Origin: Giardia intestinalis
Taxonomy: Eukaryota
Length of the DNA: 64,000 bases
Assembly: GCA_000002435.2 (NCBI GenBank)
Contig: CM018791.1
Reading direction: 5' to 3' (one strand)
Position numbers and translations under genes: made by a program. The notes under the pieces were generated by a model that saw only the letters and a program-made list of their open reading frames with translations, was not told the origin of the DNA and searched no databases. This document shows positions 9,097 to 25,483 of this stretch, in pieces (the first letter of the stretch is position 1; each line of letters starts with the position of its first letter).

Positions 9097-12000
9097 ATGG
9101 TTCAAATCTTATCGACTCCTTGTAAAAGTTACAAAAAAGAAGGAGTCCGCGCTATGAATTTCTCCGTTAGTACCAAGAAAGAGTGGTTTGCAAGTATCCT
9201 CGCGCATCGCTATGAGACTGTGCGCGCTTCCATGAAGAAGTTCAGCAAGTCCACAGACGTGGATGGGGAAACTGGGCTCATGTTGGCCACTCGCAACAGC
9301 GATATGGAAATGATCCGGATTCTCATGCCCGTTGAGGCGAAGCTCACCAATAAGGATGGGCTGACCGCATTAATGATTGCTGCGATGCTTGATAACAAGG
9401 ATACGTGTGAAGTCCTTGCAAAGGTGGAGAGTGACGTCATCCTCAAGGATGGCCAGAATGCACTTATGATCGCGGCTGCTAATGGCTCTCTTTCCGCTAC
9501 CAAAATGCTCCTGCGCCACATACAGTACGTTACAGACGATCTGGGGTGGACGGCTCTTGACCACGCAGCAAACGGAGGACATCTCAAGTGCGTGCAACTG
9601 CTTGTTGCAGAAGTCCCGTCCCTTACTGTTAGCGACTTCGAGAACGCTATCTCTGTGGCCTATGACAAGGGCCATTCGCATGTCGTCGATTACCTAGCGT
9701 CTATGATTTACCAGGCAGAAAAGGACACATATGGTGATGATAGTATGACTACTGGCAGCCCGTCCGGACAGACAAGGTCGCGCTCTTCCAGCAAAAGTCA
9801 CAAGAAGAACTCGCTAGAACAAGAAAATAAATCGCTCAAACAGATGAATGCCAAGCTGAATGAAGAGGTCGAAAGGCTGCGAGCTACAGACAAGCGGCGG
9901 CTACGCGAAACACCAAACGATGCTGAGCTGGAGGCAAGAATTCAGGAACTGGAGCGCGAAAACGATATGCTGCGCCAGACAATCCAAAAGAGAGACACTG
10001 GCAATAGCTCTAAGCATGGCGACAACTTGGACGCTAAGTATGACGATCTTTGGCATCAGAAAGAGAAGCTTGAGCAGGAGCTAGAGCACACTCGCAGAAA
10101 TCTGGAGGAGGCAAAGTCAGCTTACAATCGTGTCGATGATACGGAGGTCACGGCCCTCCGAGCTGAGCTGATAGAAGCTAGGGAAATTCAGGAGCAGCGA
10201 ACGCAGACGATCTCAACACTAAACAGGCAGATCGATGACATGCGAAGAGAGCTAGATTATTTGCGTGGAGACAACAAAGCCACGCGTGGAGATGCAGAGA
10301 ACATGGCCACCAGCGCGTCCCAGTTGGCAGGAGAGCTTCAGGACGCTCGTCATGAAATAGACAGACTGAATACCACAATCACCGAGCTCAGACAAGCTGG
10401 GAATCGCAATCCATACGATTCGAATATGGCTGTCCTTCAGCAAGGCCACGCCCAGATGCAGGACATTCAGGCCGAGAACAGAGCGCTGAAGCAGGAGCTT
10501 GACTACTATAGAAACATGCAAGCCAATCAGCCACCGTATCCTGGCTTGGCAGCACAGTCCTCGATGACACACTCTTTTAGGGACTACACTTCACAAGAAA
10601 AGGTAGACCTTAACGGCCCACATGTAATAAGATCAAAGCAGGATCCAGAGAGGGAGCGGACGCTCGACCTACTTCGGTTAGAAAATGCAGATCTGCGTGA
10701 GGTCATAAGGATGCGCGTGAACCCTGTAGCCTTAGACACTGACCCAGAGTCCATTGATGGGAAAATACTTCGGTTAGATAAGCTTAGGGTCGAGAATGAT
10801 CTTCTTAGGCACGAAATCCTGCTTAAGCACTCAATTCTTACCCTCAACATGGAGAAGGATCTTCAGACCATCCGAGCAGAAAATGTTCTTCTGCGCGACG
10901 CGCTTCGGTCCCGCACCTCTACATATGTCCCTCAGGATCTTATTGACCAACTCACTCGACAGAATGACATTATTGCAGCGGAGAACATAGAATATAGGCG
11001 TGCCATTGGCCAAGCAGCTTCTGTGCACCAGCCGTCATACCAAGACGGATATTCGCCTACTCTCAACCCCACTCTGCATGGAAATGGCGGATCCATACCA
11101 CCAGCAGTTATCCAGGAGATAGAGTCTCTGCGGCAGGAGAATCAGACACTCAAGCATCAACTGGCGACTGCACAGCTTGCCCCTTCGGTAGAAACTTTAC
11201 ATAGCACGCAACTTGTACAGCCCAACCACCCACCACTTGAGCTTCAGCGCGAGCTGGATAGACTCACAAATGAGAATATCGATTTGCGCTCCACAATTCA
11301 TCGTCTTCAGAGCAATCAGAATCAACCCCTTGGTAACTCAGTGTCAGACGCAACAGAGATCAGCATGCTGCGCTCAGAAAATGCTAGCCTCAGAGAGGCC
11401 ATGCGCACTCAGGTGCATGACACTAGCACAGGACTGCTTCACAGCCTCACTACAGAGATTGAGACGTTAAAGCAGGAAAACATTATGCTCAAGAATGCCC
11501 TTCATAACCAGCCACCTCCACCACAGCCCCAATCTGTCATCACTAATGTTGTTCCTCCGGAGACCACCTACGAGCTTGAAAGACTCAGAAACGAAAATGT
11601 GACACTCAAAGTTGAGCTAGATAAAACGCGCGCTAGCCTAATGACAGAGATAAACTCCCGTACTATGCAGAGCCAGGCCTCCTCCCAGCATCTTTTAACC
11701 GAGCTGGACACATACAAAGCGCAGATTCAGCGTCTTGAGCGCGAGAATGAACTACTCAGGTCCCTTCCACCTCAAAACATGGGCATGATGGGGACAAACG
11801 GGCCCATGCAAATCGTTATTCCAGGCCTTACACCAAATCGCGAGAACGTTAAGCGGGACGCTGATGGAAACACCAACCTTATCCGTGCTGTTAAAAATAA
11901 CAACATGGACCTTGTTCGCCGATTCTGGCCTGTCGAAGCTGGAGTCCAAAATAACAGAGGCGAATCTGCTCTGATGACCGCAATAGAAATGAACAACACA

Positions 12001-13470
12001 GACGCAGCCCTAATGCTTGTTGAAAGGGAGTCCGGGCTTCAGGATGCGACGGGCCGCTCGGCGCTCATGTGTGCCGCTGAACGGGATAATTACGAGGTTG
12101 CAGTCGAGCTTGCGCAACATGAGCAGGGCTTGAAAATGCCAGATGGTACAACTGCACTCATGATAGCAGCATCCAAGAACCATGTGCGGATCTGCAAGCT
12201 ACTTTCGGAGCAAGAGGGTCAGATGCGGAACACAGAGGGCAACACGGCTCTGCACATTGCTGCAAATCTTGATCACGCAGAAGCATGCGCAGTACTTGTG
12301 GAGCATGCAGGGCTCATTAAGGACAAGGCGGGCCATCTTGCCCTTCACAATGCGTGCATCAGAGGGAATAAGAACGCAGCCCGCGCTCTCTATCGCAAAG
12401 AGAATGGCTTCCATCAGTTTGATGGTTGGACTCCGTTGATGGGTGCAGCGGCCATTGATGACATGACAGAGCTTCGGTTCTATCTTGAGAACTACGTCGG
12501 AATGAAGGACAAGGATGGCATGACTGCGCTCATGTATGCTGCGGTTTGCAACAATCCCAATGCCATTCTGCAGCTCTTGGAGAGGGAATCAGGAATGCGC
12601 ACTAACAAGGGCTACACCGCGCTCATGCTTGCAGCTGAGAAAAATAACGTCAATGCGGTGCAGGTCCTCATGCCCAAGGAGGCTACAATTATGAACAACG
12701 AACGGGAAACGGCCCTGATGATCGCATCTCGGGCAGGTGCCACAGAGTCTGCACGCATCCTGGTGCCCACAGAGGGTGGCATCCGCATGCTGGATGGAAC
12801 GTCCGCACTTAGACTCGCGCTCGATTACAACAACCAAGAACTAGCCCGGTTCTTAGCAGAGCGAGAAGGGATTGCTGTGGGCCAACTCACGCGTGACTTC
12901 CACGGCCGAACAGATCTCATGCGCGCCGCAGAAGAGGGAGACGCCGTATCGGTTTACTGTCTGTTGCCAAGTCAGGGCGGACTTGTTGATGTCGACGGGA
13001 AGACGGCGCTCATGTACGCCTGCGAGCGTGGGCATGTTCAGTGTGCAAGGCTGCTCAAGGAGAAGGAAGCAAGGATGCGCCGGACGATGCGCGACTCATG
13101 GGAGGGTCAGACGGCGCTTATGTTTGCAGCGCAGGCAGGAAGTGTGGAGATCGTAGACCTGCTAATCGACGTTGAGGGAGGCTGCTCTTGCGCCAACGGA
13201 TGGACTGCTCTGATGAGCGCAGCCAGATTCAACAAGGTGGCATGTGTTGAGGCGCTCCTGGACCGCGAGGCGCGCATGCAGACAAATGAGCGGTTCGCTG
13301 CTGGGGCAGGATACACGGCCCTTATGGCTGCCGCAGAATGGTCGTTCATTAAGTGTGTGCGCGCACTGCTTCCTCGCGAGCATGATATCAGGCACTCCAG
13401 CGGAAAGACCGCGATAGACTTTGCGAAGACGAGCACCATCCTCGAGTGCATCAACAACTACCGTCCTTAG
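9097..13470 (+). CDS. Ankyrin-repeat plus coiled-coil protein ('protein 21.1'-like), 1457 aa. About 4 N-terminal ankyrin repeats, ~650-aa coiled coil, ~17 C-terminal ankyrin repeats. The true start may be the second ATG near 9154 (MNFSVSTKKEWF...).
   Basis: ORF in track. N-terminus is paralogous to the divergently transcribed gene at 6685..8967 (WF..I..R...GETGLM.A.R..D.E...IL.P.E). Alignment and an AT-rich tract (aaaagttacaaaaaagaagg) favour the second Met. Confidence 0.8.
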   Translation: MVQILSTPCKSYKKEGVRAMNFSVSTKKEWFASILAHRYETVRASMKKFSKSTDVDGETGLMLATRNSDMEMIRILMPVEAKLTNKDGLTALMIAAMLDNKDTCEVLAKVESDVILKDGQNALMIAAANGSLSATKMLLRHIQYVTDDLGWTALDHAANGGHLKCVQLLVAEVPSLTVSDFENAISVAYDKGHSHVVDYLASMIYQAEKDTYGDDSMTTGSPSGQTRSRSSSKSHKKNSLEQENKSLKQMNAKLNEEVERLRATDKRRLRETPNDAELEARIQELERENDMLRQTIQKRDTGNSSKHGDNLDAKYDDLWHQKEKLEQELEHTRRNLEEAKSAYNRVDDTEVTALRAELIEAREIQEQRTQTISTLNRQIDDMRRELDYLRGDNKATRGDAENMATSASQLAGELQDARHEIDRLNTTITELRQAGNRNPYDSNMAVLQQGHAQMQDIQAENRALKQELDYYRNMQANQPPYPGLAAQSSMTHSFRDYTSQEKVDLNGPHVIRSKQDPERERTLDLLRLENADLREVIRMRVNPVALDTDPESIDGKILRLDKLRVENDLLRHEILLKHSILTLNMEKDLQTIRAENVLLRDALRSRTSTYVPQDLIDQLTRQNDIIAAENIEYRRAIGQAASVHQPSYQDGYSPTLNPTLHGNGGSIPPAVIQEIESLRQENQTLKHQLATAQLAPSVETLHSTQLVQPNHPPLELQRELDRLTNENIDLRSTIHRLQSNQNQPLGNSVSDATEISMLRSENASLREAMRTQVHDTSTGLLHSLTTEIETLKQENIMLKNALHNQPPPPQPQSVITNVVPPETTYELERLRNENVTLKVELDKTRASLMTEINSRTMQSQASSQHLLTELDTYKAQIQRLERENELLRSLPPQNMGMMGTNGPMQIVIPGLTPNRENVKRDADGNTNLIRAVKNNNMDLVRRFWPVEAGVQNNRGESALMTAIEMNNTDAALMLVERESGLQDATGRSALMCAAERDNYEVAVELAQHEQGLKMPDGTTALMIAASKNHVRICKLLSEQEGQMRNTEGNTALHIAANLDHAEACAVLVEHAGLIKDKAGHLALHNACIRGNKNAARALYRKENGFHQFDGWTPLMGAAAIDDMTELRFYLENYVGMKDKDGMTALMYAAVCNNPNAILQLLERESGMRTNKGYTALMLAAEKNNVNAVQVLMPKEATIMNNERETALMIASRAGATESARILVPTEGGIRMLDGTSALRLALDYNNQELARFLAEREGIAVGQLTRDFHGRTDLMRAAEEGDAVSVYCLLPSQGGLVDVDGKTALMYACERGHVQCARLLKEKEARMRRTMRDSWEGQTALMFAAQAGSVEIVDLLIDVEGGCSCANGWTALMSAARFNKVACVEALLDREARMQTNERFAAGAGYTALMAAAEWSFIKCVRALLPREHDIRHSSGKTAIDFAKTSTILECINNYRP
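11857..13440 (+). repeat. Coding array of ~17 tandem ankyrin repeats (Giardia '21.1'-type: E.G....G.TALM.AA) in the C-terminal third of the 1457-aa protein
   Basis: Recurring ~33-aa units, e.g. GESALMTAIEMNNTDAALMLVERESGLQDATGRSALMCAAERDN... through ...GKTAIDFAKT. Confidence 0.75.
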
Positions 13471-13504: not shown

Positions 13505-13511
13505 ATTTACT
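13505..13511 (-). terminator. Polyadenylation signal AGTAAAT for small TM gene A
   Basis: AGTRAAY match ~30 nt after the stop at 13543, in the 72-bp convergent spacer. A near-match TGTAAAC (13482-13488, plus strand) may serve the convergent gene. Confidence 0.55.
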
Positions 13512-13542: not shown

Positions 13543-13953
13543 TTAGCAAACTCCGCACATGGCCAGCGAGCCGATTATGATGACGCAGATAGCACACACT
13601 ACAAGTACAACAAAAGCGACGTGAGTGAACCAGGTTTCTACTGGCATACTGGAGGACCAATTCTCATACCAAGGCTGCGCCAGGCCCCACCAAAGCATCA
13701 TGGCACCGCGGAAAAGGTGGTGGGCGATAAAGCCAGACCAGGAGTTCTCGATGAAGGAGTCCCCAAAGCCCGTCCCGAAATCAGAGATGAGAGTGATGAC
13801 CATCCAGAAGAGGAGGGCAAGCTGGTAGACGTGATTCCCGACATGGTCGGTGCCCAGCAGCATCTTAGTGAGCATACCAATGCCGCCTGCAGCAGCCCCA
13901 ACGACCGTGAACCACTTCGCAGTCTCACCCGCGCAACCGGACGCCTTAGTCAT
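13543..13953 (-). CDS. Small ~4-TM membrane protein, 136 aa. Paralog A of a tandem pair. Weak TMEM14-like GG-x-G helix motif.
   Basis: ATG at 13951-13953. Hydrophobic segments with small-residue motifs (AAAGGIGM). ~25% identity to the next gene. AGTAAAT downstream of the stop. Confidence 0.65.
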   Translation of the reverse strand: MTKASGCAGETAKWFTVVGAAAGGIGMLTKMLLGTDHVGNHVYQLALLFWMVITLISDFGTGFGDSFIENSWSGFIAHHLFRGAMMLWWGLAQPWYENWSSSMPVETWFTHVAFVVLVVCAICVIIIGSLAMCGVC

Positions 13954-14068
13954 TTTAAATTCCTCGCAACAGTATTTTTTAAATTTGTCCGCAAGCCGAT
14001 TTTCGCATTGCAGTCGCCGATCTCAGGCAACAAGCACGTTATAGATCGAGCATGGAGAGTGGGCGGAG

Positions 14069-14482
14069 TCAGGCGCAAAAGTGAAGAGCTATTCCCAAAA
14101 TCATGACCAAGGCTCCTCCCGTGAGTAAGATGATCCAAAGCACCTTTGTGAGAATGAAAAGTGTTGTAACAGATGCTAAAAGCTGCGTCCAGGTAGTGTA
14201 GCAAGGGAGCATAAGCGAGATTATGATCATACAAGCGCCCCGCTTTACGGGCATTCTTCCTGTCTCTGAGATATACTTAGCATTGAGCGTGTTTGCCGGC
14301 TCCAAACTGAAATCCGCAAGACCCATGAGGACAAGCCACATGGATAAGACTAAGTGTAGCAGAAAGTCGCCCACATATGAGCCCTGGAAAAGAAGAGACG
14401 CAGATGCAAGAGCCCCTGCTGTGCAGGAACCAACGCTGATCCACTTGATCACGCTTGAGAGGACATCTGTGCGATCAGCCAT
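14069..14482 (-). CDS. Small ~4-TM membrane protein, ~138 aa. Paralog B of the tandem pair. The track ORF 14069..14689 begins at a TTG; the true ATG is at ~14480-14482 (MADRTDVL...).
   Basis: The first codon of the track ORF is TTG (CAA on the plus strand at ~14687-14689). The first in-frame ATG gives a protein the same size as paralog A. Shared K-W...G..G...W.V...DF...RGA.M signature. Confidence 0.6.
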   Translation of the reverse strand: MADRTDVLSSVIKWISVGSCTAGALASASLLFQGSYVGDFLLHLVLSMWLVLMGLADFSLEPANTLNAKYISETGRMPVKRGACMIIISLMLPCYTTWTQLLASVTTLFILTKVLWIILLTGGALVMILGIALHFCA

Positions 14483-14553
14483 TGAGCGGTGGCCCAAAAT
14501 CTGCTTTAAAATTACATCGAAGCTAGGCGAAAAGTCTGGACAGTCTGAGTGGC

Positions 14554-16029
14554 ATGACAAATGCGTACATGGGGGCGACAGACATAGAGAGCACCGCTCT
14601 GCAGGAGCGATGTTCAACTCTGCAGAAGGAAAACTATGAGTTGAGACAGCGGGTCTTTTCTCTTGAGAAGAAACTTGCAGACACGTCAAACAGCCTTAAA
14701 GATGAGTGTGCACGCGAGAGGGCCCGGTACAGAGCTCTAGAGGCGAAGATGGATGAATTTCAGCTTACAACAGAAAGGCATGCTACAAAGCGTGTTGAGG
14801 ACCTTATGCTTGAATGTAGGGATTTAAAGGCCAACTTATCACGAGAGCGGGACCGCACAAAAGCAATGGAGCAGGAGCTCGATGCCCTGTCCAGCTATGC
14901 CAGCGAACGGATCAACCTTTCTCGCCGCCTGGAAATAGCAGAGTCTCGAGTGTCAGACCTAGAAACTCTCCTCGATGTAGATCGAAAGCAGTTCCTTGCA
15001 GAGGCGGCAGAGCAGCGGGCAATGCTCGAAAGCAGGCACCGTGCAGAGGTCCAGGCTGCCGTTGAGGAAGCAATCCGGGCCACCAATGAGAACATTTCCA
15101 CCGAAACGCGCCTCCTCAGAGACCAGAACCAAATCTTGCAGAAGTCAGTTCTTATTTTGAAGGGTTCGGGCGGCAATACAGGTACGAGGCGGGTTCCCAC
15201 AATCAGCAGGATGGAGTCAGAGCTTCCTGGTACCAGCGTGAGCCGCTCACGAACGACCTCTCAGCTCTCCATGGCCAAGGCATCTGTCTCCGGGCATATA
15301 AACTGCGACGAAATAGAAAAGTTTGAAATGGACATCAGCAGAGGTTTAGAAATGAGGATAGGAGAACTCAAAATGACTGTCAAGCATCTTCAAGCAAAAC
15401 TCGAAGAGCAGGCGTCCGATTTTAAGCGGGAGAAAAACGAGGCTAGTGAGTTTATCGCCAATCTCATCTCGAAGTTCAACAAGGAACGTGCAGATCTCCT
15501 CTTCGAAATAAAGTCTCTCGAAAAGCTCGTCTATGCTAAGTGCAAAGAACTCTACAAGCTGCGGACTTTGGCGCAAATGCTTCTTCAGCGCAGGACTGAT
15601 CTGGAAGCGTTTTTATCTAAGCTCTTGGCTGCAACCCTCGACCTGGAGACGAGGGCTATCAGCCCCTACACGATGGCTGAGTACTTTGACGTTGAAATGG
15701 GCCGCCGGCGGTCCTGGTCGCCGTCTCCACCACCAGATTACCGATACACTAGCGGTGCCATCCCCCGAAGCATTTCCTCGGGTTCCGCTCCTGCAGCAGG
15801 AGCGGGGACTTGTCGGGAACTTGCCGCCATCATGACCCGGACTAACCTGAATTCAAACGAGGCTCTCTCCTCCATCACACCGAAGATGCCGCGCACCATG
15901 GCAGAAATGGAGCGCTCTCTAAATACTGCTATCCGAGTGCGCTCTGATCCACTGATAAATTCATTGAGTTCACAAGAGGTTGCTAATATTGTACGCGACT
16001 GGATTACGAAAATAGACATCCCCCTCTAG
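14554..16029 (+). CDS. Coiled-coil protein, 491 aa, hypothetical (probably cytoskeletal)
   Basis: ORF with an ATG start. Heptad-rich, e.g. LQKENYELRQRVFSLEKKL. Its stop lies only 10 bp from the stop of the convergent 3147-aa gene. Confidence 0.7.
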   Translation: MTNAYMGATDIESTALQERCSTLQKENYELRQRVFSLEKKLADTSNSLKDECARERARYRALEAKMDEFQLTTERHATKRVEDLMLECRDLKANLSRERDRTKAMEQELDALSSYASERINLSRRLEIAESRVSDLETLLDVDRKQFLAEAAEQRAMLESRHRAEVQAAVEEAIRATNENISTETRLLRDQNQILQKSVLILKGSGGNTGTRRVPTISRMESELPGTSVSRSRTTSQLSMAKASVSGHINCDEIEKFEMDISRGLEMRIGELKMTVKHLQAKLEEQASDFKREKNEASEFIANLISKFNKERADLLFEIKSLEKLVYAKCKELYKLRTLAQMLLQRRTDLEAFLSKLLAATLDLETRAISPYTMAEYFDVEMGRRRSWSPSPPPDYRYTSGAIPRSISSGSAPAAGAGTCRELAAIMTRTNLNSNEALSSITPKMPRTMAEMERSLNTAIRVRSDPLINSLSSQEVANIVRDWITKIDIPL

Positions 16030-16039
16030 CCCCATTCAC

Positions 16040-19000
16040 CTAGCTGTACCATCTGAATGTCTCTCTTTGATACCCTACAATTGCGCCATCTACCACAGCC
16101 AAAGAGTCGGCTAGTATCTCAGTCTCACAGACCTTCCTTATGTGTTCTGAAACGTCAGAATCGAGGGAGTATACGAGCTGCTTATTCACGAGCATGTACC
16201 CTGCAAAGCCATCGTCGTACCCCCCGAAGAAGGCAATGTGCTGTACAGGCGCTGGGACACTCAGTGCTTTTATGTGTATGTTTCCCAAGGTGTACAGGTA
16301 TATGTAATATTGGAGCGTCCTTTCCGAGTCCACTGTTGTGTCGTCATTTAGGACAGAGAGACCAACAGCAATGAGCCCTTGCCGCTCATGCACTGCGCAG
16401 TAAGTGATTGCTAGCTTTTCTTCATATGAGATTCTAAATTTGGCTAAGAGGTAGGGAGAGTCTGTTTCTCGTGAACCATAGGATACAGTCCGATGCAGTG
16501 AATTATATTCCAGGACATGAAGAACATGGGGCGAGTAGTAGCAAACCAGTGAGAGCTCGGGAACGTGGAGAAAACTTGACATGGCCAGTCGGCTGTAGTA
16601 TCCTACATCGAGGGGACAATGCTGAATGATAAATAATTGTGGCTGTGCATCAGTAGACAGGTTGCGGATATTGGCCAATATGATCCCCTGGTCGGTGTAT
16701 AAGTGGAGGACATACCCATAGAAGGGCATGTACCCTGCACTGTCGATCTTAGTTATAATGGCATTTTTGCTTGTAGAGCACCGTCTACCGAGTGTGCTGG
16801 CCAGCTTGAATGTAGTGATGTGCATTCCTATGGTCTTGCCTTGCTTAGCTAGCTGAGCCACGGGGATGTTTGTCAATAACCGTGGCTGCGAGCCAGAAGC
16901 ACGTGAGAATCCTAGAATAACGATCTGCCCTGGAGGTGGGTGTTGTGCTCCTGATAGCAATTGATCTGGAGTGTTGAGGCTTCCTGACTCTTGTTCACGC
17001 CCAAGGTTACCACCGGTGAAGACGGAGGAAAGCCCTCCGGACCCTCCTTTTGGAGCTACGTGGAAGGAGTCCAAGAATACCTTAGACAGCTCGAATACGC
17101 TGATCTCTTGGCGATTAATATCAAAGTAGAGCATGTAGGTATCTATGACAATGCAGTCTTTGGTGGTCCAAAGCAATCCATTTATGTGATTTGCCAGAGT
17201 AACGTGTCGTCCTGCAACACAGAGCGCTGGCTGGTTAAAGTGCCGAAATATTAGATCGCACTTTTCAGTTACACTTTGCACAGACCCTGGTGTCAACTGT
17301 TCAAAAGGAACCGTATGCAGATATCTTCTTATATCAACGCTGTGCGTTAGAACTAGCTCTTCGGCCATCTTTGTGGGCTTGTGCACGTTATCCATCAGCG
17401 CCAGCAACTTGGAAAGCTCGTCTTGATGCAATCGTATAGGATAGGTCCCAAAGTAAAGACTCGTAGCGATGCTTGCCTCACCTGGAGAATACTCCGCAGT
17501 GCCACTGGGAAAGAGATTCAGTGCATCCAGAGATTGCTGCTTAGATCCAAATAGTAACTCAATCCACGACCGGAGCCCTCCCTGGTCTGCTTGATTGGAG
17601 AAGATTGTAGATTCTAGAGCAGTTCTCTGAGCATGCACTGTGTCGATCGCCTGCGAGGGTGTGGATTGCAAGGCTTCCGTTACAGTTTCGGCGTCAGAGG
17701 AAAGCTGCAATCCGTTAGTATTTGTAAAAATATACGGAGTATAGAAGAGTTCCGGAATGGCCTCGTGGAATGAGCTGCCCAGCTCCACTTTCTCCCAGTG
17801 AGATCGCAGGCTAATGAAAAGTCGTGAGAAGGCATCCAAACACCCACCTTGGAGATTGCGTTGTAACGACGTAAAGGGCTCCACACAAAAACAATAATAA
17901 GGAAGAGTCATGTTGTTACTTATGAACGTTCTGAAGAGGGGGCTTGCCGAAAGTAACTTCATGGCGGAGGGAGACAGATTGGCTCTTTCAAGGCCTTTTC
18001 TAAAGAAAGAAATGGCGTCTTCACTGCTCGCTGTAGCAGCCTTCTCCAGTGTCTGCATGCTTTGCTTAAGGATGTCGTTAAGGAAAGCAGTTGCAGCCAT
18101 CTTGTCCTGAAGAGATGTGCTTTGCAGCTCACCAAGGGACATCTCTGCATACTTGGCGATGCTCTTACAGAGGGAGGTGTTGCTCTGTGCAGGCAGCGGA
18201 TACCTTAGATTTCGCGGCTTAGCAGATTTTCGTGGAGACAATGCTGGGAAAATGGGGTATATGTAAGATACAACAGGGGAACGCGCTGCGATCATGTTCA
18301 TTGCCGAGAGCAATGTGAATACAGAGAACTGGATCATTGTCAGAGAAATGGTATTGTTAGCCATCAAGAGAGAGATACGGCGACCCAAGATCAGCCGTAG
18401 CTGTCCAAGGAGCTCTGCCTGGAAAGTAGACACAATGGTCTCGAAGTCCAAGAGAACACCCTTCTTCTTATAAGGGGACTTGGAATAGTAGTAGCAGGTG
18501 CCATAAGCGCTTCCACTACCAGATTCTCCGCACCCGAACCGACGGTAATAACCGTAATTGTGAATCAGCTTAACTGCATGCTCTTGCGTTTTGAAGAGTA
18601 GGACATGCACAGCCCCATTAGATTCGATTATCTGCAAGGCAGGTTGCATTCGAATAAAGAAGAACGGAACCATGTATAGGATTCGCGAATACTCAATGGA
18701 CAGTTCAACCTCCTTATACTTATGGTAGGCCCTATTCTGAGTAGACATACAATAGTCGTAGAGCCCATACGATATCCGCCGGCCAAAGCTGTCCTGCTTC
18801 CTAGAAAAGCTATTTTCTAGATGGATGCTTCGAGGGTTATCCTTTGTGCACAAGAGACGCCTCAGAATAGAGAACGACTCTGCTTCTTGATGCTCCTTAA
18901 TAGCAGAGTTTGCGGGTTCATCTGCAGCTTGAAGTGCTCCAGTGGAGTCGTCTGCATCGCTCTCTGATCGCTGGTCAAATCGCGCCCAATTGAATAGAAA

Positions 19001-22000
19001 CGTCTGACTTTGGTGTCCAGTGTATGCTACAAAGTTGGGCTCAGTGTCCATTACTGAGAAGCACATCTTTTCCTGATATTTATCCGTAATCACAAGCTGC
19101 TCTCCCATTGGCGGGGCTTGCTTCTCAGCCTTGTCAATAAGGTCTGAGGATACACGGAGGCTGAGCACCCCGTATCCTGTATAGACCAGGGATACCACTA
19201 AGACGTCGCCAAACTCTATAAGACGACGGCTTGTGCTGGTATTTGTCACACTATACTGCCTTAAGCTCGTTGAACTGAGGGGTGGCAACGCACCGCCAAT
19301 ATCAGTCAGACAAGAATCTGCCAAGCGACCATTGACGTCAGACTGGATGAAGGTGGGACTTAGGCGCACAGAGGGATATGAAAATACAGATGGACTTAGT
19401 AACACCAACTTTTGGCTACTGAGATGATGCATTTGCTTATATATGGGGTGTGGCAGAAAGAAGTGAGCCACGATAGACTCCCTGGAGTATAGATACTTCT
19501 GATAGAATAGATGTAAAGCAGTGGATGAATCAGCCAGGTCTCCTCCCTTATGTCTACCTTCGGTCTTTGTTTGCCCATCCAAAGAAAACGCTGTGTCAGC
19601 AGAAGCGTTCATCATTTCGAGATGAGCTAAGGTTGAAAAGATCCCGAAAGAGTCTACAGACGCGACAATAGTCTTGGGAGATCTATATTTTGGTGTGTAG
19701 CTGCAGATAATGCATACGTTTCCACAGATTGCCCGTATCATTTCGAGTGAAAGCCCTTGGAGAGCTATGGAAGACAGACAGCCTGGGCAGACGTAACGCT
19801 CAGCCGAATCTCCATCTGCCCTTGCATTCTGCATACTAGGCATGTTGATAAACGGGTTTCCAATGGGGCAAAAGCGCAGTTCATCAGGTAGATATGGAGT
19901 CCATCGAGCGGAGTTCCCATCCGTAGAGAAGGGAAGCACGTCGATAGATGCACTTGTGCGAAGAACGTCAAGCTTTTTGTGGAGTTGCTCTGCAGCTGCC
20001 TTTGAGTAGGTATTCAAGCAGGTGCACACTAAGGAAAGCGGAGCAGATTGCCACACAGTAGCGAGGCCGTTGACTGATGATAGTCTGGTAGCTAGCTCTT
20101 GAAGAAATTCTGCCGGGTCATCATCACTCTTTGCAAATACACACACAGAACGAAGTATGGATATTGTTGTAGCTATGTAAGAATGCGTGGTCGTGAAGTG
20201 ATCCAAAAGTGCGGCCATCATATCGAGTATCTTTCGAAGCAACGAGACACTGCCATCCAACGCGCTGTAGTTTCTACTGGCCTCATCCAAGCCCAGAAGG
20301 GATAGCACATCTGCACCGACCTGGGAAAATAGCGCCAATGCAGCTAGAGAAACGAGTCCTGTTGTCATGTGAATGTATTCTGTATATAATAATTCATCGG
20401 AGAGCCCGAGAACATGTCTCAACGAAGCTAGAGAACTAGGGCAAGACACTGACTCATCTGCAACAAGTGGTAGCACTGCATAAGTCACTAGCATTTTCTC
20501 AAAACGATCATACTGCCCCTTGACAAGCAAATTGAAAAGAAGAAATGCGAAGAAGTCTGTGATGCCGTATAGTGTAGTAAATGTCTTAAGAATTGGTTCT
20601 TCTGACACTGAAAAATCTGTGCTTTCCAAAAGCTGCTCGATGCCAATAAGAAGCTCAGGAATTGCCTCCTTCCTTGGTGCCCAGTCTTTCCATATCAGTC
20701 TCGTTAGGGTAGAGGAGACAGCGACGTCGTCTATTGATAAAATAACGGGCAACAGAAGCATCTTTTCGTAAAAATAAAGATCTGCCACAACAGGGACAGC
20801 TTTGATAATAGAATACGCCTCCTCCCTTACAGCGTTTGTGTACAGGTCATAAATTAGTGCAATCAAGTCCTTATTTGAGAACGATGTCGTGACTGGAAAG
20901 GGCAGAGACATGCATTTAAGAAGCTGCACTAACATAATTGTGTGCGTATCATTGTCCTGTGAATACCTCCGCAAAAGAGCTACAAACTGCTCCATTGGCC
21001 TGCCGTACGAGGTGGCGCCAATACAGTTGGCAATCTCATCTGATACACGACAGAAAAGAAGTAATTGATACATGATAAAGCAGACGGGTGCTGTTCTTTC
21101 GCCAACACCGCGAAGGAGATAGTACCCCTCCGAGAAAACCATGTGGTGTAACTGGCAAAGTTTCACGTAGAAGGACTGCTCTGCTACCGTCCATTGCCAG
21201 CTCTGCAATTCAGTCACTTCTTTAGATGGACTTGCATCAGGAAAGTAGAGCGCAACTGGAACAATGATAAGCTCGTGATAAAGTTTCGTCAACAAAAGAA
21301 GTAGGTGTGGATGTGACTCACGCTGAGAGCTGATAATGAATTCAAACAGAAGCCTTGTAAATACAACAACCACATGAAGAGCTTGCATCCGTAGGGGCCA
21401 GTGCAGTATGGAGAAGTAGGCGATGAGAAGCTTATACCCACAGGCACGACTAAATATCTCTTCTACCTCTGCGTCCTGCAACATATGAAGAAGCTTCAGA
21501 AGAAGAGCCGGTTCGAACTCTTGCTTGTAGCGAGGCGTCTTCCCACTGCACCCATTCTCTCCAAGGAAGAGAAGGGAGAGTATCTGGAACAACCCACTTA
21601 TGTCGTAATTCCAGACATCCTGTGGCATGATGGCTCTGACTAGCTCACCATCTGCGGTATCATCATACATTATAAACGAATAGCCAATGGTCTCTGCGTA
21701 AGCCCATGTAAATGTTGGTGCTTGAAAACGTTGGAAGTGTTGTCGGTCGTTTTGTTGCTGAGTGTAAATGGCAACAGGGTAGATCCTTGTCGGATATGAG
21801 ACTGCAACACTATTGACGGCGCAAAAGGCGTCATCGCTAAGATATAGAAGCCTTATTGCCGCGTCTATGTCCAGGCGTGCTTCTAGCAGTGAGCTTGAAG
21901 TATCAATGTCCAGAGGGATAGATGTGATAAAAGAATCCCCTTTGCTGAGAATTGTGTAACACAATAAAACAAGGTTTTCAGGCGAAAACGTTGCCTCAAT

Positions 22001-25000
22001 GTATATCCACTCAGCTCTTTCATCCAATGGAACAATATACTTGCTAGACGACGTGCTTAGACTTGTAGAAAAGAAAACTGATCCATCCTGTATCCAAATG
22101 GTCAAGGTTATTGCCTCTGGTTGCGGCCTAGTTGTGTCACCTGCTCCCTTGTGAATAGTCAACGTAAGAGTCATCGTATAGCTATTTTTCACGTGGCAAT
22201 AAGTAAAGATTGTAGCATTTATCGAACTCAGCGAGACTGTTTTGCGTGCCCTTTTAAGTGGAGAGCTCCCCGAGCGCAATATTAAAAAGTTCCCTGGAAC
22301 AATTGCTTCTGCTTGTAAGGTTTGAGTCACCTGATCAGGACTCGGCTCCAACAATGGATGTACCTGAATTTGAAATAGCACATTAAAGTAGGAGAGAAAG
22401 CGCAGCATTCCGTCTTCATCAGCAGAAGCCTCTTGCCGCTCCGTTAGCAGATAGTAACAGGGGAGCTCGCTGCCCAATTGCTTCAGTAAATATCGAGCAA
22501 CGGCATTGTGGAGAATAAGGGAACTAGACTGCTTTAGCAGCAGAGAGAGCAGACGCACATCTAGAGGCGAATCCTCATCGGCAGCAGAGAAGAATGCGGG
22601 GAAGATATTGACTTTCGCAGTAAAGTCTGCAATGATGCGAAGTGTGTGTTGCTCCCCGCTGAGAATGCATGAACGTATAAACAGGTTGAGGGCCAGACGA
22701 GAAAAGTAAGCTTTACCACCTGTCGTAAGTTCATGCAAATATTCTAAGGACGCAGCTATGCACCGTAGTGAACGATGAGAAGAGGCTTTCCAAAGTGTTA
22801 GCGACGGGGTTGACAAGAACAGGAGACGAATAGAAATATCGTCATGGCCTGCTGCAGGATCGTGGAGCACCAAGTCATACAAAGCAGATTGAAATACTGT
22901 GAAGTCACGAGACACAAGCTTACTCCATTTTCCTGCCTGATAACTGTGTGAAGAGTCTCTAATAGACTGGAGTCTGCCCCGGAGCGAACGCTTATTGCCA
23001 CCAACAGACAGAAAGGACGGAATGCCTTGAAACAAAGAGCCAGAGATGATATAGCAGGACATAGATGAAGCACATAGAAAGATAAGGCACTGGTGAATGA
23101 GGTCAAGCCGGGCACTCTTGTCGCTAAGTACAAGCGTCATGATCTTCCTTAGTAGCGTTCTTAGATCAAAGTCATACCCTCGAACGTACTGCTCAGGTTG
23201 AGCTTCGTGGATTGTCTCCTCTAATAATGCAGACAAGTTGAGCATTTCCCCAATAAGAATAAACATGAGTATAAGCACATTCTGGGGTGATATTGACAAC
23301 TTCTCAAATTCAACCAAGACATAGTCGAAAAGATGAATCAACTCAACCGAGGTAGATGCCTTCCAAAAGGTAACTAGTTGATGCTCCTTCTTATTAAAAT
23401 GGCCGAGTGTAATGTGTTGGAAGAGCATGCAAAGTAGAACGATTTCCAGACATGGCCCCCCATACGCGATAACCTCACGAACGACACGAGAGTAAACGTC
23501 AAGAAAGACATTACCGGAGGGAGGTTCGCTGATGCACAATGTTGAGACATAGGCGAATTCTAAGAAGGTAATCAGATTATCGCACAGGAGTTTGAACATT
23601 TGCTGCTGAAGCATGGATGAGTAGCCTTTATATACCCATGAGACAGACAGAAAACTGTCAAGAAATTTAGCTGTTGTCAGTGAGGCTGTCTCATTCGGCG
23701 CAGTAAAGCACTCGTTATATATAGTCTTGCAAGTAGTGTGCAGCGAGCTCCCTGGCGTTGAGGGGTCGATCAATTCTCTAGTGATAGATCTATACACGGT
23801 CGGGGACACTTCTAGAAGTCCAAGGAGTGCCTCTTGAAAGATGGGAACATCCTCTGGAGAAAGTGTAGTATGCAGAGATTGTAAAAACGGGACGCATTCT
23901 TTATAAATAAAGGGTAGCGCTACGTAAGTAATCATAGTAATGCAATGGGCCTCAGCTTGGTCAAGCCACGTGGATCCCGTAGGGGCTCCGATAGCAAGAC
24001 ACACTCTGTAGAGAATCAACATAAGATGGAGGAGAAACGCAGCATCAACGTTTGCCGCCATATGCCGCTTAATGTTGGTCTTAATTAAACCTAGAAATAG
24101 ATTGAAAACGGCATCCATCCGCACCGGCGCCAACTGAAAGATTTTAATAAGAGTACATACAAGAAAATCTGAGTCTAGAGTATCTAGTGAAACCGTTATG
24201 CTGAAGTACTTAGTTAGTATGCTAAGCAGGACATTCTCTAGCTTATCACTAAGTAAGCGACTAGTCAGATCACTTTTCACAACGAGCTTTCCTCCTTTGG
24301 AAGAAGAGGCTTGATGGGCAATCAGATTGCACCGAAGGCTAGCAAGGCGCTGGATACAATCCACATAGAACGCGAGAGCAAGAGATATTTCATGAAGTCC
24401 CGTACCATCCTTGGAAAGCAACACATCAAGCTTTTCTAACGCATATAAAAAGCCTGTAGACCGATACATGGTACGTAGAGACCCAGAGGTTCTGCTTATG
24501 TGTACGGGCGAAACCCTTGAGAAAACAATCTCTCTTAAGCACGATAAGGAGCTCTTTAATGCCCATATAAATGTTTCATATTCTTCTACACAGTTCAGCA
24601 TTGTAAAGATAGCGTCAATAGCTGTGCTCTGAAGTGTGAGGAGGTCGACAGGCTGCAGATATGCGGTGCATACGTGTGGCCTGCTGGCAGATGTCTTGCA
24701 AATGTGAGATATAACACGTAACCTTCTAGAAAATAGAAACTTTGGTGAGATCTGAGTTTTCTCTCTCATTTGTGTGATGAGAGCATAGTGATGCACATCT
24801 TCTAATAGTGAAGCGAGCGAAAACAAAAATCTAAGACCTTCCTTGCTGTAAAGCGCTAGGTCGATAAGGCCAATTTGGTCCGTGGTATCCATAACAAGCT
24901 TCCCGTCGCTAGGTAAAAGTACATCCACATTCTGACCGGAGACTGCGACTCGCAGACTTTTTCTCAAGATGCCAAAGCATACTGTTGCTAGGTGGCTATT

Positions 25001-25483
25001 GGGATTGAGCCTGATGAAGAAAAGCAAAGCAATCATGCGGTTCAAAAGGGTCAAGAGCATGTGGCGAGGCCCAGCATCCTGATACAAGAAAGCAGTAAAT
25101 AAGGATGAAGACTCAGGTTGGAGCGCTTCGTCACACTGGTAAATATTATAGAGGGTAGCTGTAAGCATGTAGACAAGCGGTAGACGAAGGGCTGAGAGAT
25201 TTTGTTTTGCTGGATACACCTGGCTTTCACTGAGTGTACAATCAAGGAGCGCCCTTAGCGGCGTTTGACCTAGGAACTGGCGCGCATCGTGAACGTACGC
25301 ATTGTCTAATAGGAGTGAAGTCTTCAAAAGGGTTTTGTGCACCTCCTGAGAAGAGCTCAATATAGTGGTCAGAATCAGGGGCTTCAGTTGTTGACTATTG
25401 CTGGACTTGTCTATGTCCTCTGTCTCTAAGCCCTTCAACAGCTCACTGTGGAATCTAAGAACAGCGGCAACAAGACAGTCCAT
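16040..25483 (-). CDS. Giant hypothetical protein, 3147 aa. N-terminal ~2500 aa is leucine-rich and alpha-helical; the C-terminal ~450 aa is beta-rich (possible propeller). No catalytic motif recognised.
   Basis: Single uninterrupted 9.4-kb ORF with an ATG start (CAT at 25481-25483). Its start lies just downstream of the ACS polyadenylation motif. Confidence 0.75.
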   Translation of the reverse strand: MDCLVAAVLRFHSELLKGLETEDIDKSSNSQQLKPLILTTILSSSQEVHKTLLKTSLLLDNAYVHDARQFLGQTPLRALLDCTLSESQVYPAKQNLSALRLPLVYMLTATLYNIYQCDEALQPESSSLFTAFLYQDAGPRHMLLTLLNRMIALLFFIRLNPNSHLATVCFGILRKSLRVAVSGQNVDVLLPSDGKLVMDTTDQIGLIDLALYSKEGLRFLFSLASLLEDVHHYALITQMREKTQISPKFLFSRRLRVISHICKTSASRPHVCTAYLQPVDLLTLQSTAIDAIFTMLNCVEEYETFIWALKSSLSCLREIVFSRVSPVHISRTSGSLRTMYRSTGFLYALEKLDVLLSKDGTGLHEISLALAFYVDCIQRLASLRCNLIAHQASSSKGGKLVVKSDLTSRLLSDKLENVLLSILTKYFSITVSLDTLDSDFLVCTLIKIFQLAPVRMDAVFNLFLGLIKTNIKRHMAANVDAAFLLHLMLILYRVCLAIGAPTGSTWLDQAEAHCITMITYVALPFIYKECVPFLQSLHTTLSPEDVPIFQEALLGLLEVSPTVYRSITRELIDPSTPGSSLHTTCKTIYNECFTAPNETASLTTAKFLDSFLSVSWVYKGYSSMLQQQMFKLLCDNLITFLEFAYVSTLCISEPPSGNVFLDVYSRVVREVIAYGGPCLEIVLLCMLFQHITLGHFNKKEHQLVTFWKASTSVELIHLFDYVLVEFEKLSISPQNVLILMFILIGEMLNLSALLEETIHEAQPEQYVRGYDFDLRTLLRKIMTLVLSDKSARLDLIHQCLIFLCASSMSCYIISGSLFQGIPSFLSVGGNKRSLRGRLQSIRDSSHSYQAGKWSKLVSRDFTVFQSALYDLVLHDPAAGHDDISIRLLFLSTPSLTLWKASSHRSLRCIAASLEYLHELTTGGKAYFSRLALNLFIRSCILSGEQHTLRIIADFTAKVNIFPAFFSAADEDSPLDVRLLSLLLKQSSSLILHNAVARYLLKQLGSELPCYYLLTERQEASADEDGMLRFLSYFNVLFQIQVHPLLEPSPDQVTQTLQAEAIVPGNFLILRSGSSPLKRARKTVSLSSINATIFTYCHVKNSYTMTLTLTIHKGAGDTTRPQPEAITLTIWIQDGSVFFSTSLSTSSSKYIVPLDERAEWIYIEATFSPENLVLLCYTILSKGDSFITSIPLDIDTSSSLLEARLDIDAAIRLLYLSDDAFCAVNSVAVSYPTRIYPVAIYTQQQNDRQHFQRFQAPTFTWAYAETIGYSFIMYDDTADGELVRAIMPQDVWNYDISGLFQILSLLFLGENGCSGKTPRYKQEFEPALLLKLLHMLQDAEVEEIFSRACGYKLLIAYFSILHWPLRMQALHVVVVFTRLLFEFIISSQRESHPHLLLLLTKLYHELIIVPVALYFPDASPSKEVTELQSWQWTVAEQSFYVKLCQLHHMVFSEGYYLLRGVGERTAPVCFIMYQLLLFCRVSDEIANCIGATSYGRPMEQFVALLRRYSQDNDTHTIMLVQLLKCMSLPFPVTTSFSNKDLIALIYDLYTNAVREEAYSIIKAVPVVADLYFYEKMLLLPVILSIDDVAVSSTLTRLIWKDWAPRKEAIPELLIGIEQLLESTDFSVSEEPILKTFTTLYGITDFFAFLLFNLLVKGQYDRFEKMLVTYAVLPLVADESVSCPSSLASLRHVLGLSDELLYTEYIHMTTGLVSLAALALFSQVGADVLSLLGLDEASRNYSALDGSVSLLRKILDMMAALLDHFTTTHSYIATTISILRSVCVFAKSDDDPAEFLQELATRLSSVNGLATVWQSAPLSLVCTCLNTYSKAAAEQLHKKLDVLRTSASIDVLPFSTDGNSARWTPYLPDELRFCPIGNPFINMPSMQNARADGDSAERYVCPGCLSSIALQGLSLEMIRAICGNVCIICSYTPKYRSPKTIVASVDSFGIFSTLAHLEMMNASADTAFSLDGQTKTEGRHKGGDLADSSTALHLFYQKYLYSRESIVAHFFLPHPIYKQMHHLSSQKLVLLSPSVFSYPSVRLSPTFIQSDVNGRLADSCLTDIGGALPPLSSTSLRQYSVTNTSTSRRLIEFGDVLVVSLVYTGYGVLSLRVSSDLIDKAEKQAPPMGEQLVITDKYQEKMCFSVMDTEPNFVAYTGHQSQTFLFNWARFDQRSESDADDSTGALQAADEPANSAIKEHQEAESFSILRRLLCTKDNPRSIHLENSFSRKQDSFGRRISYGLYDYCMSTQNRAYHKYKEVELSIEYSRILYMVPFFFIRMQPALQIIESNGAVHVLLFKTQEHAVKLIHNYGYYRRFGCGESGSGSAYGTCYYYSKSPYKKKGVLLDFETIVSTFQAELLGQLRLILGRRISLLMANNTISLTMIQFSVFTLLSAMNMIAARSPVVSYIYPIFPALSPRKSAKPRNLRYPLPAQSNTSLCKSIAKYAEMSLGELQSTSLQDKMAATAFLNDILKQSMQTLEKAATASSEDAISFFRKGLERANLSPSAMKLLSASPLFRTFISNNMTLPYYCFCVEPFTSLQRNLQGGCLDAFSRLFISLRSHWEKVELGSSFHEAIPELFYTPYIFTNTNGLQLSSDAETVTEALQSTPSQAIDTVHAQRTALESTIFSNQADQGGLRSWIELLFGSKQQSLDALNLFPSGTAEYSPGEASIATSLYFGTYPIRLHQDELSKLLALMDNVHKPTKMAEELVLTHSVDIRRYLHTVPFEQLTPGSVQSVTEKCDLIFRHFNQPALCVAGRHVTLANHINGLLWTTKDCIVIDTYMLYFDINRQEISVFELSKVFLDSFHVAPKGGSGGLSSVFTGGNLGREQESGSLNTPDQLLSGAQHPPPGQIVILGFSRASGSQPRLLTNIPVAQLAKQGKTIGMHITTFKLASTLGRRCSTSKNAIITKIDSAGYMPFYGYVLHLYTDQGIILANIRNLSTDAQPQLFIIQHCPLDVGYYSRLAMSSFLHVPELSLVCYYSPHVLHVLEYNSLHRTVSYGSRETDSPYLLAKFRISYEEKLAITYCAVHERQGLIAVGLSVLNDDTTVDSERTLQYYIYLYTLGNIHIKALSVPAPVQHIAFFGGYDDGFAGYMLVNKQLVYSLDSDVSEHIRKVCETEILADSLAVVDGAIVGYQRETFRWYS

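Follow-up and report, generated by a model that had tools for sequence, protein, structure and literature searches.

A conserved tandem pair of small membrane proteins in Giardia, possibly a diverged branch of the COPI_assoc/TVP15 family

Two small genes lie side by side on the minus strand of a 64,000-nucleotide stretch of Giardia duodenalis DNA of the assemblage A/WB type (the window), and they raise the question of what kind of membrane protein they encode and to which family, if any, it belongs. Gene 1 (13543-13953) encodes a protein of 136 amino acids (aa) that is 100% identical to GL50803_004705 (GL50803_4705). Gene 2 (14069-14482) encodes its 137-aa paralogue GL50803_27193 (GL50803_0027193). 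The genes are arranged head-to-tail with 115 base pairs (bp) between them, and both are annotated as "hypothetical protein" in the databases. A preliminary description of the locus, made from the DNA letters, gave sizes of 136 and about 138 aa; its coordinates and the first size are exact, and the second is one residue too long. Our best explanation, which we hold tentatively and with a rough probability of 0.45, is that the two are four-helix paralogues from a highly diverged branch of COPI_assoc/TVP15 and reside in secretory-pathway membranes.

The two proteins are related to each other. Pairwise BLASTP finds 25% identity over 131 aa (E = 5e-9), in agreement with the roughly 25% given earlier and far below the E = 0.01 above which similarity was to be regarded as not significant. 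The Smith-Waterman score of 104 compares with 34.6 +/- 5.9 for a null of 2000 shuffles made inside 12-residue blocks, which preserves the hydrophobic layout (z = 11.7); none of the 2000 shuffles reaches 104. The shared signature pointed out in the preliminary description is real and is conserved in the orthologues of both genes. K13-W14, G39, W50, D58-F59, R82-G83, G128 and a cysteine near the C-terminus are invariant or nearly so, and the cysteine-containing tails are AMCGVC in gene 1 and LHFCA in gene 2, as had been described. A tblastn search across the window found no additional copy of the family.

The pair is also old. It is adjacent, on the same strand and in the same order in assemblages A, B (GL50581_1571/1572 and QR46_0150/0151) and E (P15), and on a distant contig (L002) from an SRA assembly of a distant Giardia-like genome. 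In four Giardia lineages it sits between orthologues of a 491-aa coiled-coil gene and an ankyrin/coiled-coil gene. The orthologues on L002 are 51% (gene 1) and 31% (gene 2) identical to the window copies. Because the genes are adjacent in all these Giardia lineages, the duplication must be older than their divergence. The ratio of nonsynonymous to synonymous substitution rates (dN/dS) is 0.06-0.11 for gene 1 when assemblages A, B, E and one more Giardia lineage are compared, and 0.09-0.15 for gene 2 in comparisons of the G. duodenalis type. Both genes are under purifying selection. The adjacency across lineages and the selection bear out the earlier view of an old tandem duplication that has been retained. 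Gene 2 diverges much faster than gene 1, with 77% versus 83% identity between assemblages A and B and the 31% versus 51% between the window and L002, which suggests that it is under looser constraint or has changed its role.

Relatives are very scarce. When a profile hidden Markov model (HMM) was run against 1.84 billion representative proteins, five sequences were recovered in addition to the two queries. The genuine relatives among them are P0008, the gene 2 orthologue on L002, and two proteins of a GC-rich metagenome contig, P0009 and P0010; P0011 and P0012 proved to be long repeat proteins and were set aside as false positives. In word-indexed searches, each of the two proteins and the 11-member alignment recovered only Giardia sequences and P0009, and a metagenome DNA scan yielded no further relatives. 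The family is thus very narrow and comprises Giardia species and one uncultured eukaryote. P0009 (168 aa) and P0010 (121 aa, longer if an upstream ATG is used) are encoded side by side on the same strand of contig L001 (JGI 3300010163), within positions 598-2037, and for the first of these genes the ATG at 667 is a more probable start than position 814. A neighbour-joining tree joins the two proteins weakly to each other (57% bootstrap) and to neither Giardia paralogue, so this second tandem pair probably arose by a separate duplication. L001 has no short A/T-rich initiators of the Giardia type, and a phage check of the contig gave no match.

Hydropathy and structure prediction point to the same architecture. 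Family-averaged Kyte-Doolittle profiles show three clear spans (approximately residues 14-31, 43-56 and 107-136) and a weak one (approximately 83-95). The corresponding membrane helices of gene 1 are at approximately 14-31, 39-58, 82-95 (the weak third helix) and 107-131. The four membrane helices predicted in the preliminary description are therefore recovered as three strong spans and one weak, and the count does not fall below three. An AlphaFold2 model of gene 2, built from a 10-sequence alignment, is a four-helix bundle (helices 2-31, 37-58, 78-95 and 107-136) with an extra short helix (61-75) in the loop between helices 2 and 3; its predicted local distance difference test score (pLDDT) is 76.8 and its predicted template modelling score 0.66. 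An earlier structure model of gene 1 was poor (pLDDT 52).

Lysine and arginine residues cluster at both ends of the chain and in the loop that joins helix 2 to helix 3, and the metagenomic members P0009 and P0010 carry N-terminal extensions rich in lysine, arginine, serine and glycine. This charge distribution suggests that both termini are cytosolic. The conserved cysteine that follows helix 4 would then lie on the cytosolic face next to the membrane, where it is a possible site of S-palmitoylation. Giardia has DHHC palmitoyl-transferases, and a role of palmitoylation in its encystation has been documented (PMC4109852). Prenylation was considered and rejected: the gene 1 tail CGVC has the form of a CaaX box, which the gene 2 tail (…FCA) and the tails of the other members lack. 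Since the members have only the membrane-adjacent cysteine in common, palmitoylation is the simpler guess.

The one family with which the sequences show a recurrent, though weak, similarity is COPI_assoc (PF08507, "COPI associated protein"). Its yeast member is TVP15, and its members are small proteins of about four membrane helices that reside in the membranes of Golgi and post-Golgi vesicles. The Schizosaccharomyces pombe annotation of tvp15 reads "COPI-coated vesicle associated protein" (PMC8752990). The Pfam model spans 130 positions, and its gathering threshold is 30 bits. COPI_assoc is the top or second Pfam match for five natural members of the family, and these matches share one register, with profile positions of about 3-107 aligned to residues 11-130. 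The best score in the family is that of P0009 (E = 3.1e-5, 24.5 bits), followed by the consensus of the family HMM (E = 0.0016, 19 bits). P0010 scores lower (E = 0.091, 13.3 bits), and the gene 2 orthologues fall between E = 0.047 and 0.22, the window copy being at the upper end (E = 0.22, 12 bits). Controls consisted of ten reversed members, the consensus in reverse and P0009 block-shuffled ten times; none of them matched COPI_assoc, and their best match to any family had E = 0.042.

The sizes agree, in that the 130-position model aligns to almost the whole of proteins of about 137 aa. In both families the protein consists of about four membrane helices with no further domain, which for the Giardia proteins rests on the AlphaFold2 model and hydropathy. 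The secretory-pathway residence of COPI_assoc proteins would suit a protein found at the cyst surface, a location that accords with a secretory route and is not specific to it. There are also differences from TVP15. Giardia lacks a stacked Golgi, any association of the Giardia pair with COPI is hypothetical, and the Giardia proteins are encoded as a conserved tandem pair.

Published data on gene 1 place its product at the cyst. A C-terminal green fluorescent protein (GFP) fusion of 4705 was scored as "cyst wall" and colocalised with CWP1; no localisation was reported in trophozoites (PMC5450421). Its mRNA is 6.0-fold higher in high-density foci of the mouse gut than in culture, at 2510 versus 416 fragments per kilobase per million (FPKM) (Pham et al. 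2017, PMC5450421). In the in vitro time course of Einarsson, the FPKM is 799 for trophozoites, drops to 326 by 90 min, stands at 667 after 7 h and 562 after 22 h, and is 483 for cysts (Table 9, PMC5450421). In vitro, the gene 1 mRNA is thus abundant, roughly constitutive and not induced by encystation (0.4-0.8x). From the encystation expression supplement of PMC8700996 no row was retrieved for either gene. There is a mismatch within these data, as the mRNA is high in cultured trophozoites and yet the GFP fusion shows no localisation there. Translational control, protein turnover or masking of the extreme C-terminal CGVC by the tag are possible causes. For a protein that spans the membrane several times, the "cyst wall" signal most likely comes from membranes lying under the wall, either the plasma membrane or peripheral ones.

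Several observations weigh against placing the pair in COPI_assoc and in the secretory pathway. Every COPI_assoc score is below the 30-bit threshold, and those of the Giardia proteins (E of about 0.05-0.2) amount to 12-15 bits. The gene 1 clade has no COPI_assoc match at all in Pfam. It matches instead the membrane region of SpoIIGA (Peptidase_U4, PF03419), with E = 0.021 for P0001 and a best value of 2.8e-4 (P0001/P0002). The gene 1 alignment scores 14.5 bits against a threshold of 28.4 and covers positions 29-127 of 284, which is the membrane part only. We rejected membership of SpoIIGA, given the score and the fact that the proteins are too short to hold the C-terminal aspartic protease domain; the match is almost certainly a chance resemblance of membrane helices. 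It follows that sub-threshold matches of this size can be spurious for membrane proteins. In the reverse direction, the Giardia-based profile retrieved no bona fide COPI_assoc protein from the 1.84 billion sequences. On the cellular side, wide-field images scored as "cyst wall" do not distinguish a signal in the wall itself from one in the plasma membrane or in peripheral vesicles. A dedicated role in encystation is not established for a gene whose mRNA is abundant and uninduced in cultured trophozoites (FPKM 416-799). In the literature library searched, no paper names GL50803_27193, and no published data on gene 2 were found. Because the reversed and shuffled controls give no match, we nevertheless consider remote homology to COPI_assoc plausible, at roughly even odds and short of demonstrated family membership.

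If the COPI_assoc/TVP15 reading is correct, the two paralogous integral membrane proteins would fold as up-down bundles of four membrane helices, with the N-terminus, the C-terminus and the charged loop that follows helix 2 probably facing the cytosol. The bundle may pack through conserved interface residues, namely K-W where helix 1 begins, D-F where helix 2 ends, R-G where helix 3 begins, and the cysteine that lies beside the membrane behind helix 4 and could be S-palmitoylated. As a probable, highly diverged branch of the eukaryotic COPI_assoc/TVP15 family (PF08507), the proteins would have no enzymatic site and could act as membrane-embedded passengers or organisers of secretory-pathway carriers. 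The gene 1 product may move with, or after, cyst-wall cargo to the cyst surface. We speculate that a two-subunit assembly would be compatible with the paired retention in Giardia and with a second tandem pair in the only other lineage known to carry the family.

The strongest competitor, which we regard as possible and somewhat less probable, is a lineage-specific four-helix family unrelated to COPI_assoc. Its proteins would be structural components of the plasma or peripheral membranes, and gene 1, perhaps joined to gene 2 in a hetero-oligomer, would help to arrange the membrane below the cyst wall or to anchor it. The distribution of the family fits this idea, with only Giardia and one metagenomic contig represented among 1.84 billion proteins, and so does the fact that every Pfam match is sub-threshold, the implausible SpoIIGA match marking the level of the noise. 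The position of 4705-GFP at the cyst periphery is also consistent with it. Tandem pairs exist in Giardia and, separately duplicated (57% bootstrap), in the metagenomic relative, and this could hint at two subunits. Set against these points is the COPI_assoc signal itself, which keeps its register across five members and the consensus and appears in none of 21 controls matched in composition or layout. Furthermore, anchoring to the wall and interaction of the paralogues are conjectural, and the mRNA is high in trophozoites, which have no wall.

A bolder version of this partnership seems unlikely to us. It holds that the paralogues are obligate partners of a hetero-oligomeric complex confined to Giardia and its relatives, delivered to the surface during differentiation in the host, where the complex is required for building or holding the cyst wall or for withstanding the conditions of dense gut foci. 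If true, such a complex would be a parasite-specific, surface-proximal component of the transmission stage without a counterpart in the host.

We consider it improbable that the proteins are small oligomeric channels or accessory proteins of transport, assembled as homo- or hetero-oligomers into a conduit across the membrane of the cyst or the trophozoite. Tweety, MS4A, claudin-like, LHFPL and TARP proteins are small four-helix membrane proteins, and many proteins of this kind form or regulate pores. In favour of this reading, charged residues are kept at helix ends in the Giardia pair (D58 and R82). In the mouse gut dataset, the genes raised in foci include membrane transporter genes (PMC5450421). 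However, the pair has no sequence similarity to tweety, MS4A, claudin-like, LHFPL or TARP proteins. No polar, pore-lining face is evident either, and the conserved charges are at the membrane interfaces and not within the helices. The wider comparison with structurally solved tetraspans, comprising synaptogyrin and synaptophysin (MARVEL type), p22phox, TTYH, LHFPL, claudin, TARP, MS4A and sarcospan, gave 5-14% identity and no detectable sequence relationship. The Giardia pair differs from these proteins in having neither large extracellular loops nor a claudin-type beta-sheet. Soluble four-helix bundles score as well as the tetraspan membrane proteins.

The kinship with TMEM14/DUF423 or with Tim17/Tim22/Tim23 (PRAT) proteins suggested in the preliminary description is effectively refuted at the sequence level, since TMEM14 (PF03647), DUF423 (PF04241) and Tim17 (PF02466) give no Pfam match at E <= 10 for 11 members and the consensus, a PDB sequence search with the family profile finds no chain below E = 0.47, the PRAT motif occurs in 0 of 11 members, and 4705-GFP was reported at the cyst periphery and not in mitosomes. 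TMEM14A/C and Tim17/22/23 have solved structures, and the PRAT motif reads (G/A)X2(F/Y)X10RX3DX6(G/A/S)GX3G; fold ranking lends the kinship no support either. What the proteins share with those families is a similar small size, about four membrane helices and helix faces rich in glycine and alanine in some copies. The small-residue helix motif that had prompted the comparison does occur in helix 1 of the G. duodenalis copies, which is rich in glycine, alanine and serine, but it is not conserved in the wider family.

With this, two genes annotated as hypothetical are placed in one family, and the pair is shown to be ancient and constrained. A misleading reading of the mitochondrial-carrier type (TMEM14/Tim17) is removed, and a testable link to a conserved eukaryotic secretory-pathway family is offered. 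The secretory system of Giardia is extremely reduced, and cyst formation enables transmission. As gene 1 is conserved, reaches the cyst surface and is raised in gut foci, it is, against this background, a reasonable if modest candidate for follow-up. The pair is real and is at the same time an ordinary, lineage-restricted pair of small membrane proteins; the claim is incremental, implies no new mechanism or system, and is of modest interest, mainly to Giardia cell biologists.

The DNA around the pair is compact and contains several conserved short elements on the minus strand. The 115-bp spacer from gene 2 to gene 1 (13954-14068) holds the region of the gene 2 3' end and the short, putative A/T-rich initiator of gene 1. 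This element, AATTTAAA (13954-13961), abuts the gene 1 ATG, is kept in assemblages B and E and is a candidate initiator/promoter, as such elements are in Giardia genes. A second A/T-rich element, TAATTTTAAAG (14504-14514), is located 22-32 nucleotides (nt) upstream of the gene 2 ATG, within the spacer that separates it from the divergent 491-aa gene. It is kept as TTAATTT(A/T)AAAGCAGATT in assemblages B and E and in another Giardia lineage and is a putative promoter. Downstream of gene 1, the sequence AGTAAAT (13505-13511) lies 32-38 nt past the stop codon; it is kept in assemblages B and E and is AGTGAAT in the distant Giardia species. It fits the consensus AGTRAAY of the Giardia polyadenylation signal and is a candidate for such a signal.

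An encystation promoter acting through a gMyb2-type site was also considered for gene 1. The site, CTGTTG (the reverse of CAACAG), is 19 nt upstream of the ATG. The idea was dropped because the site is not conserved, being replaced by TTATTG and CTATTG in assemblages B and E, and because there is no induction in vitro. A non-conserved Myb2-like site in WB fits with the lack of induction during in vitro encystation.

On one side of the pair is a plus-strand gene (9097-13470) for an ankyrin-repeat/coiled-coil protein of 1457 aa, which we take to be of the Giardia "protein 21.1" type. On the other side is the plus-strand gene for the 491-aa coiled-coil protein (14554-16029, ATG at 14554), followed on the minus strand by a gene for a 3147-aa protein (16040-25483) whose orthologues have a BEACH domain (PF02138). 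The order of these neighbours is the same in assemblages B and E. Gene 2 and the 491-aa gene are divergent, with start codons 71 bp apart (spacer 14483-14553), which suggests a shared bidirectional promoter region.

The list of open reading frames (ORFs) extends gene 2 on the minus strand to a TTG at 14689 (14069-14689, 206 aa), which makes it overlap the start of the divergent 491-aa gene at 14554. All gene 2 orthologues begin at an ATG (MADRT, MANRA or MGRAS), so the start is the ATG at 14482 and the extended ORF is an artefact. A GTG-start ORF of 161 aa on the plus strand (13621-14106), antisense to gene 1 and the spacer, is without support and is taken as a by-product of the composition of the coding strand.

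On the distant contig (L002, positions 1-2945) the paralogues are 34 bp apart, and synteny with the window stops past the coiled-coil gene. In place of the BEACH gene, this contig encodes a small Myb-domain protein (1116-1493; weak, sub-threshold Pfam matches, E of about 6e-4) and an HhH-GPD (endonuclease III-like) protein (122-664).
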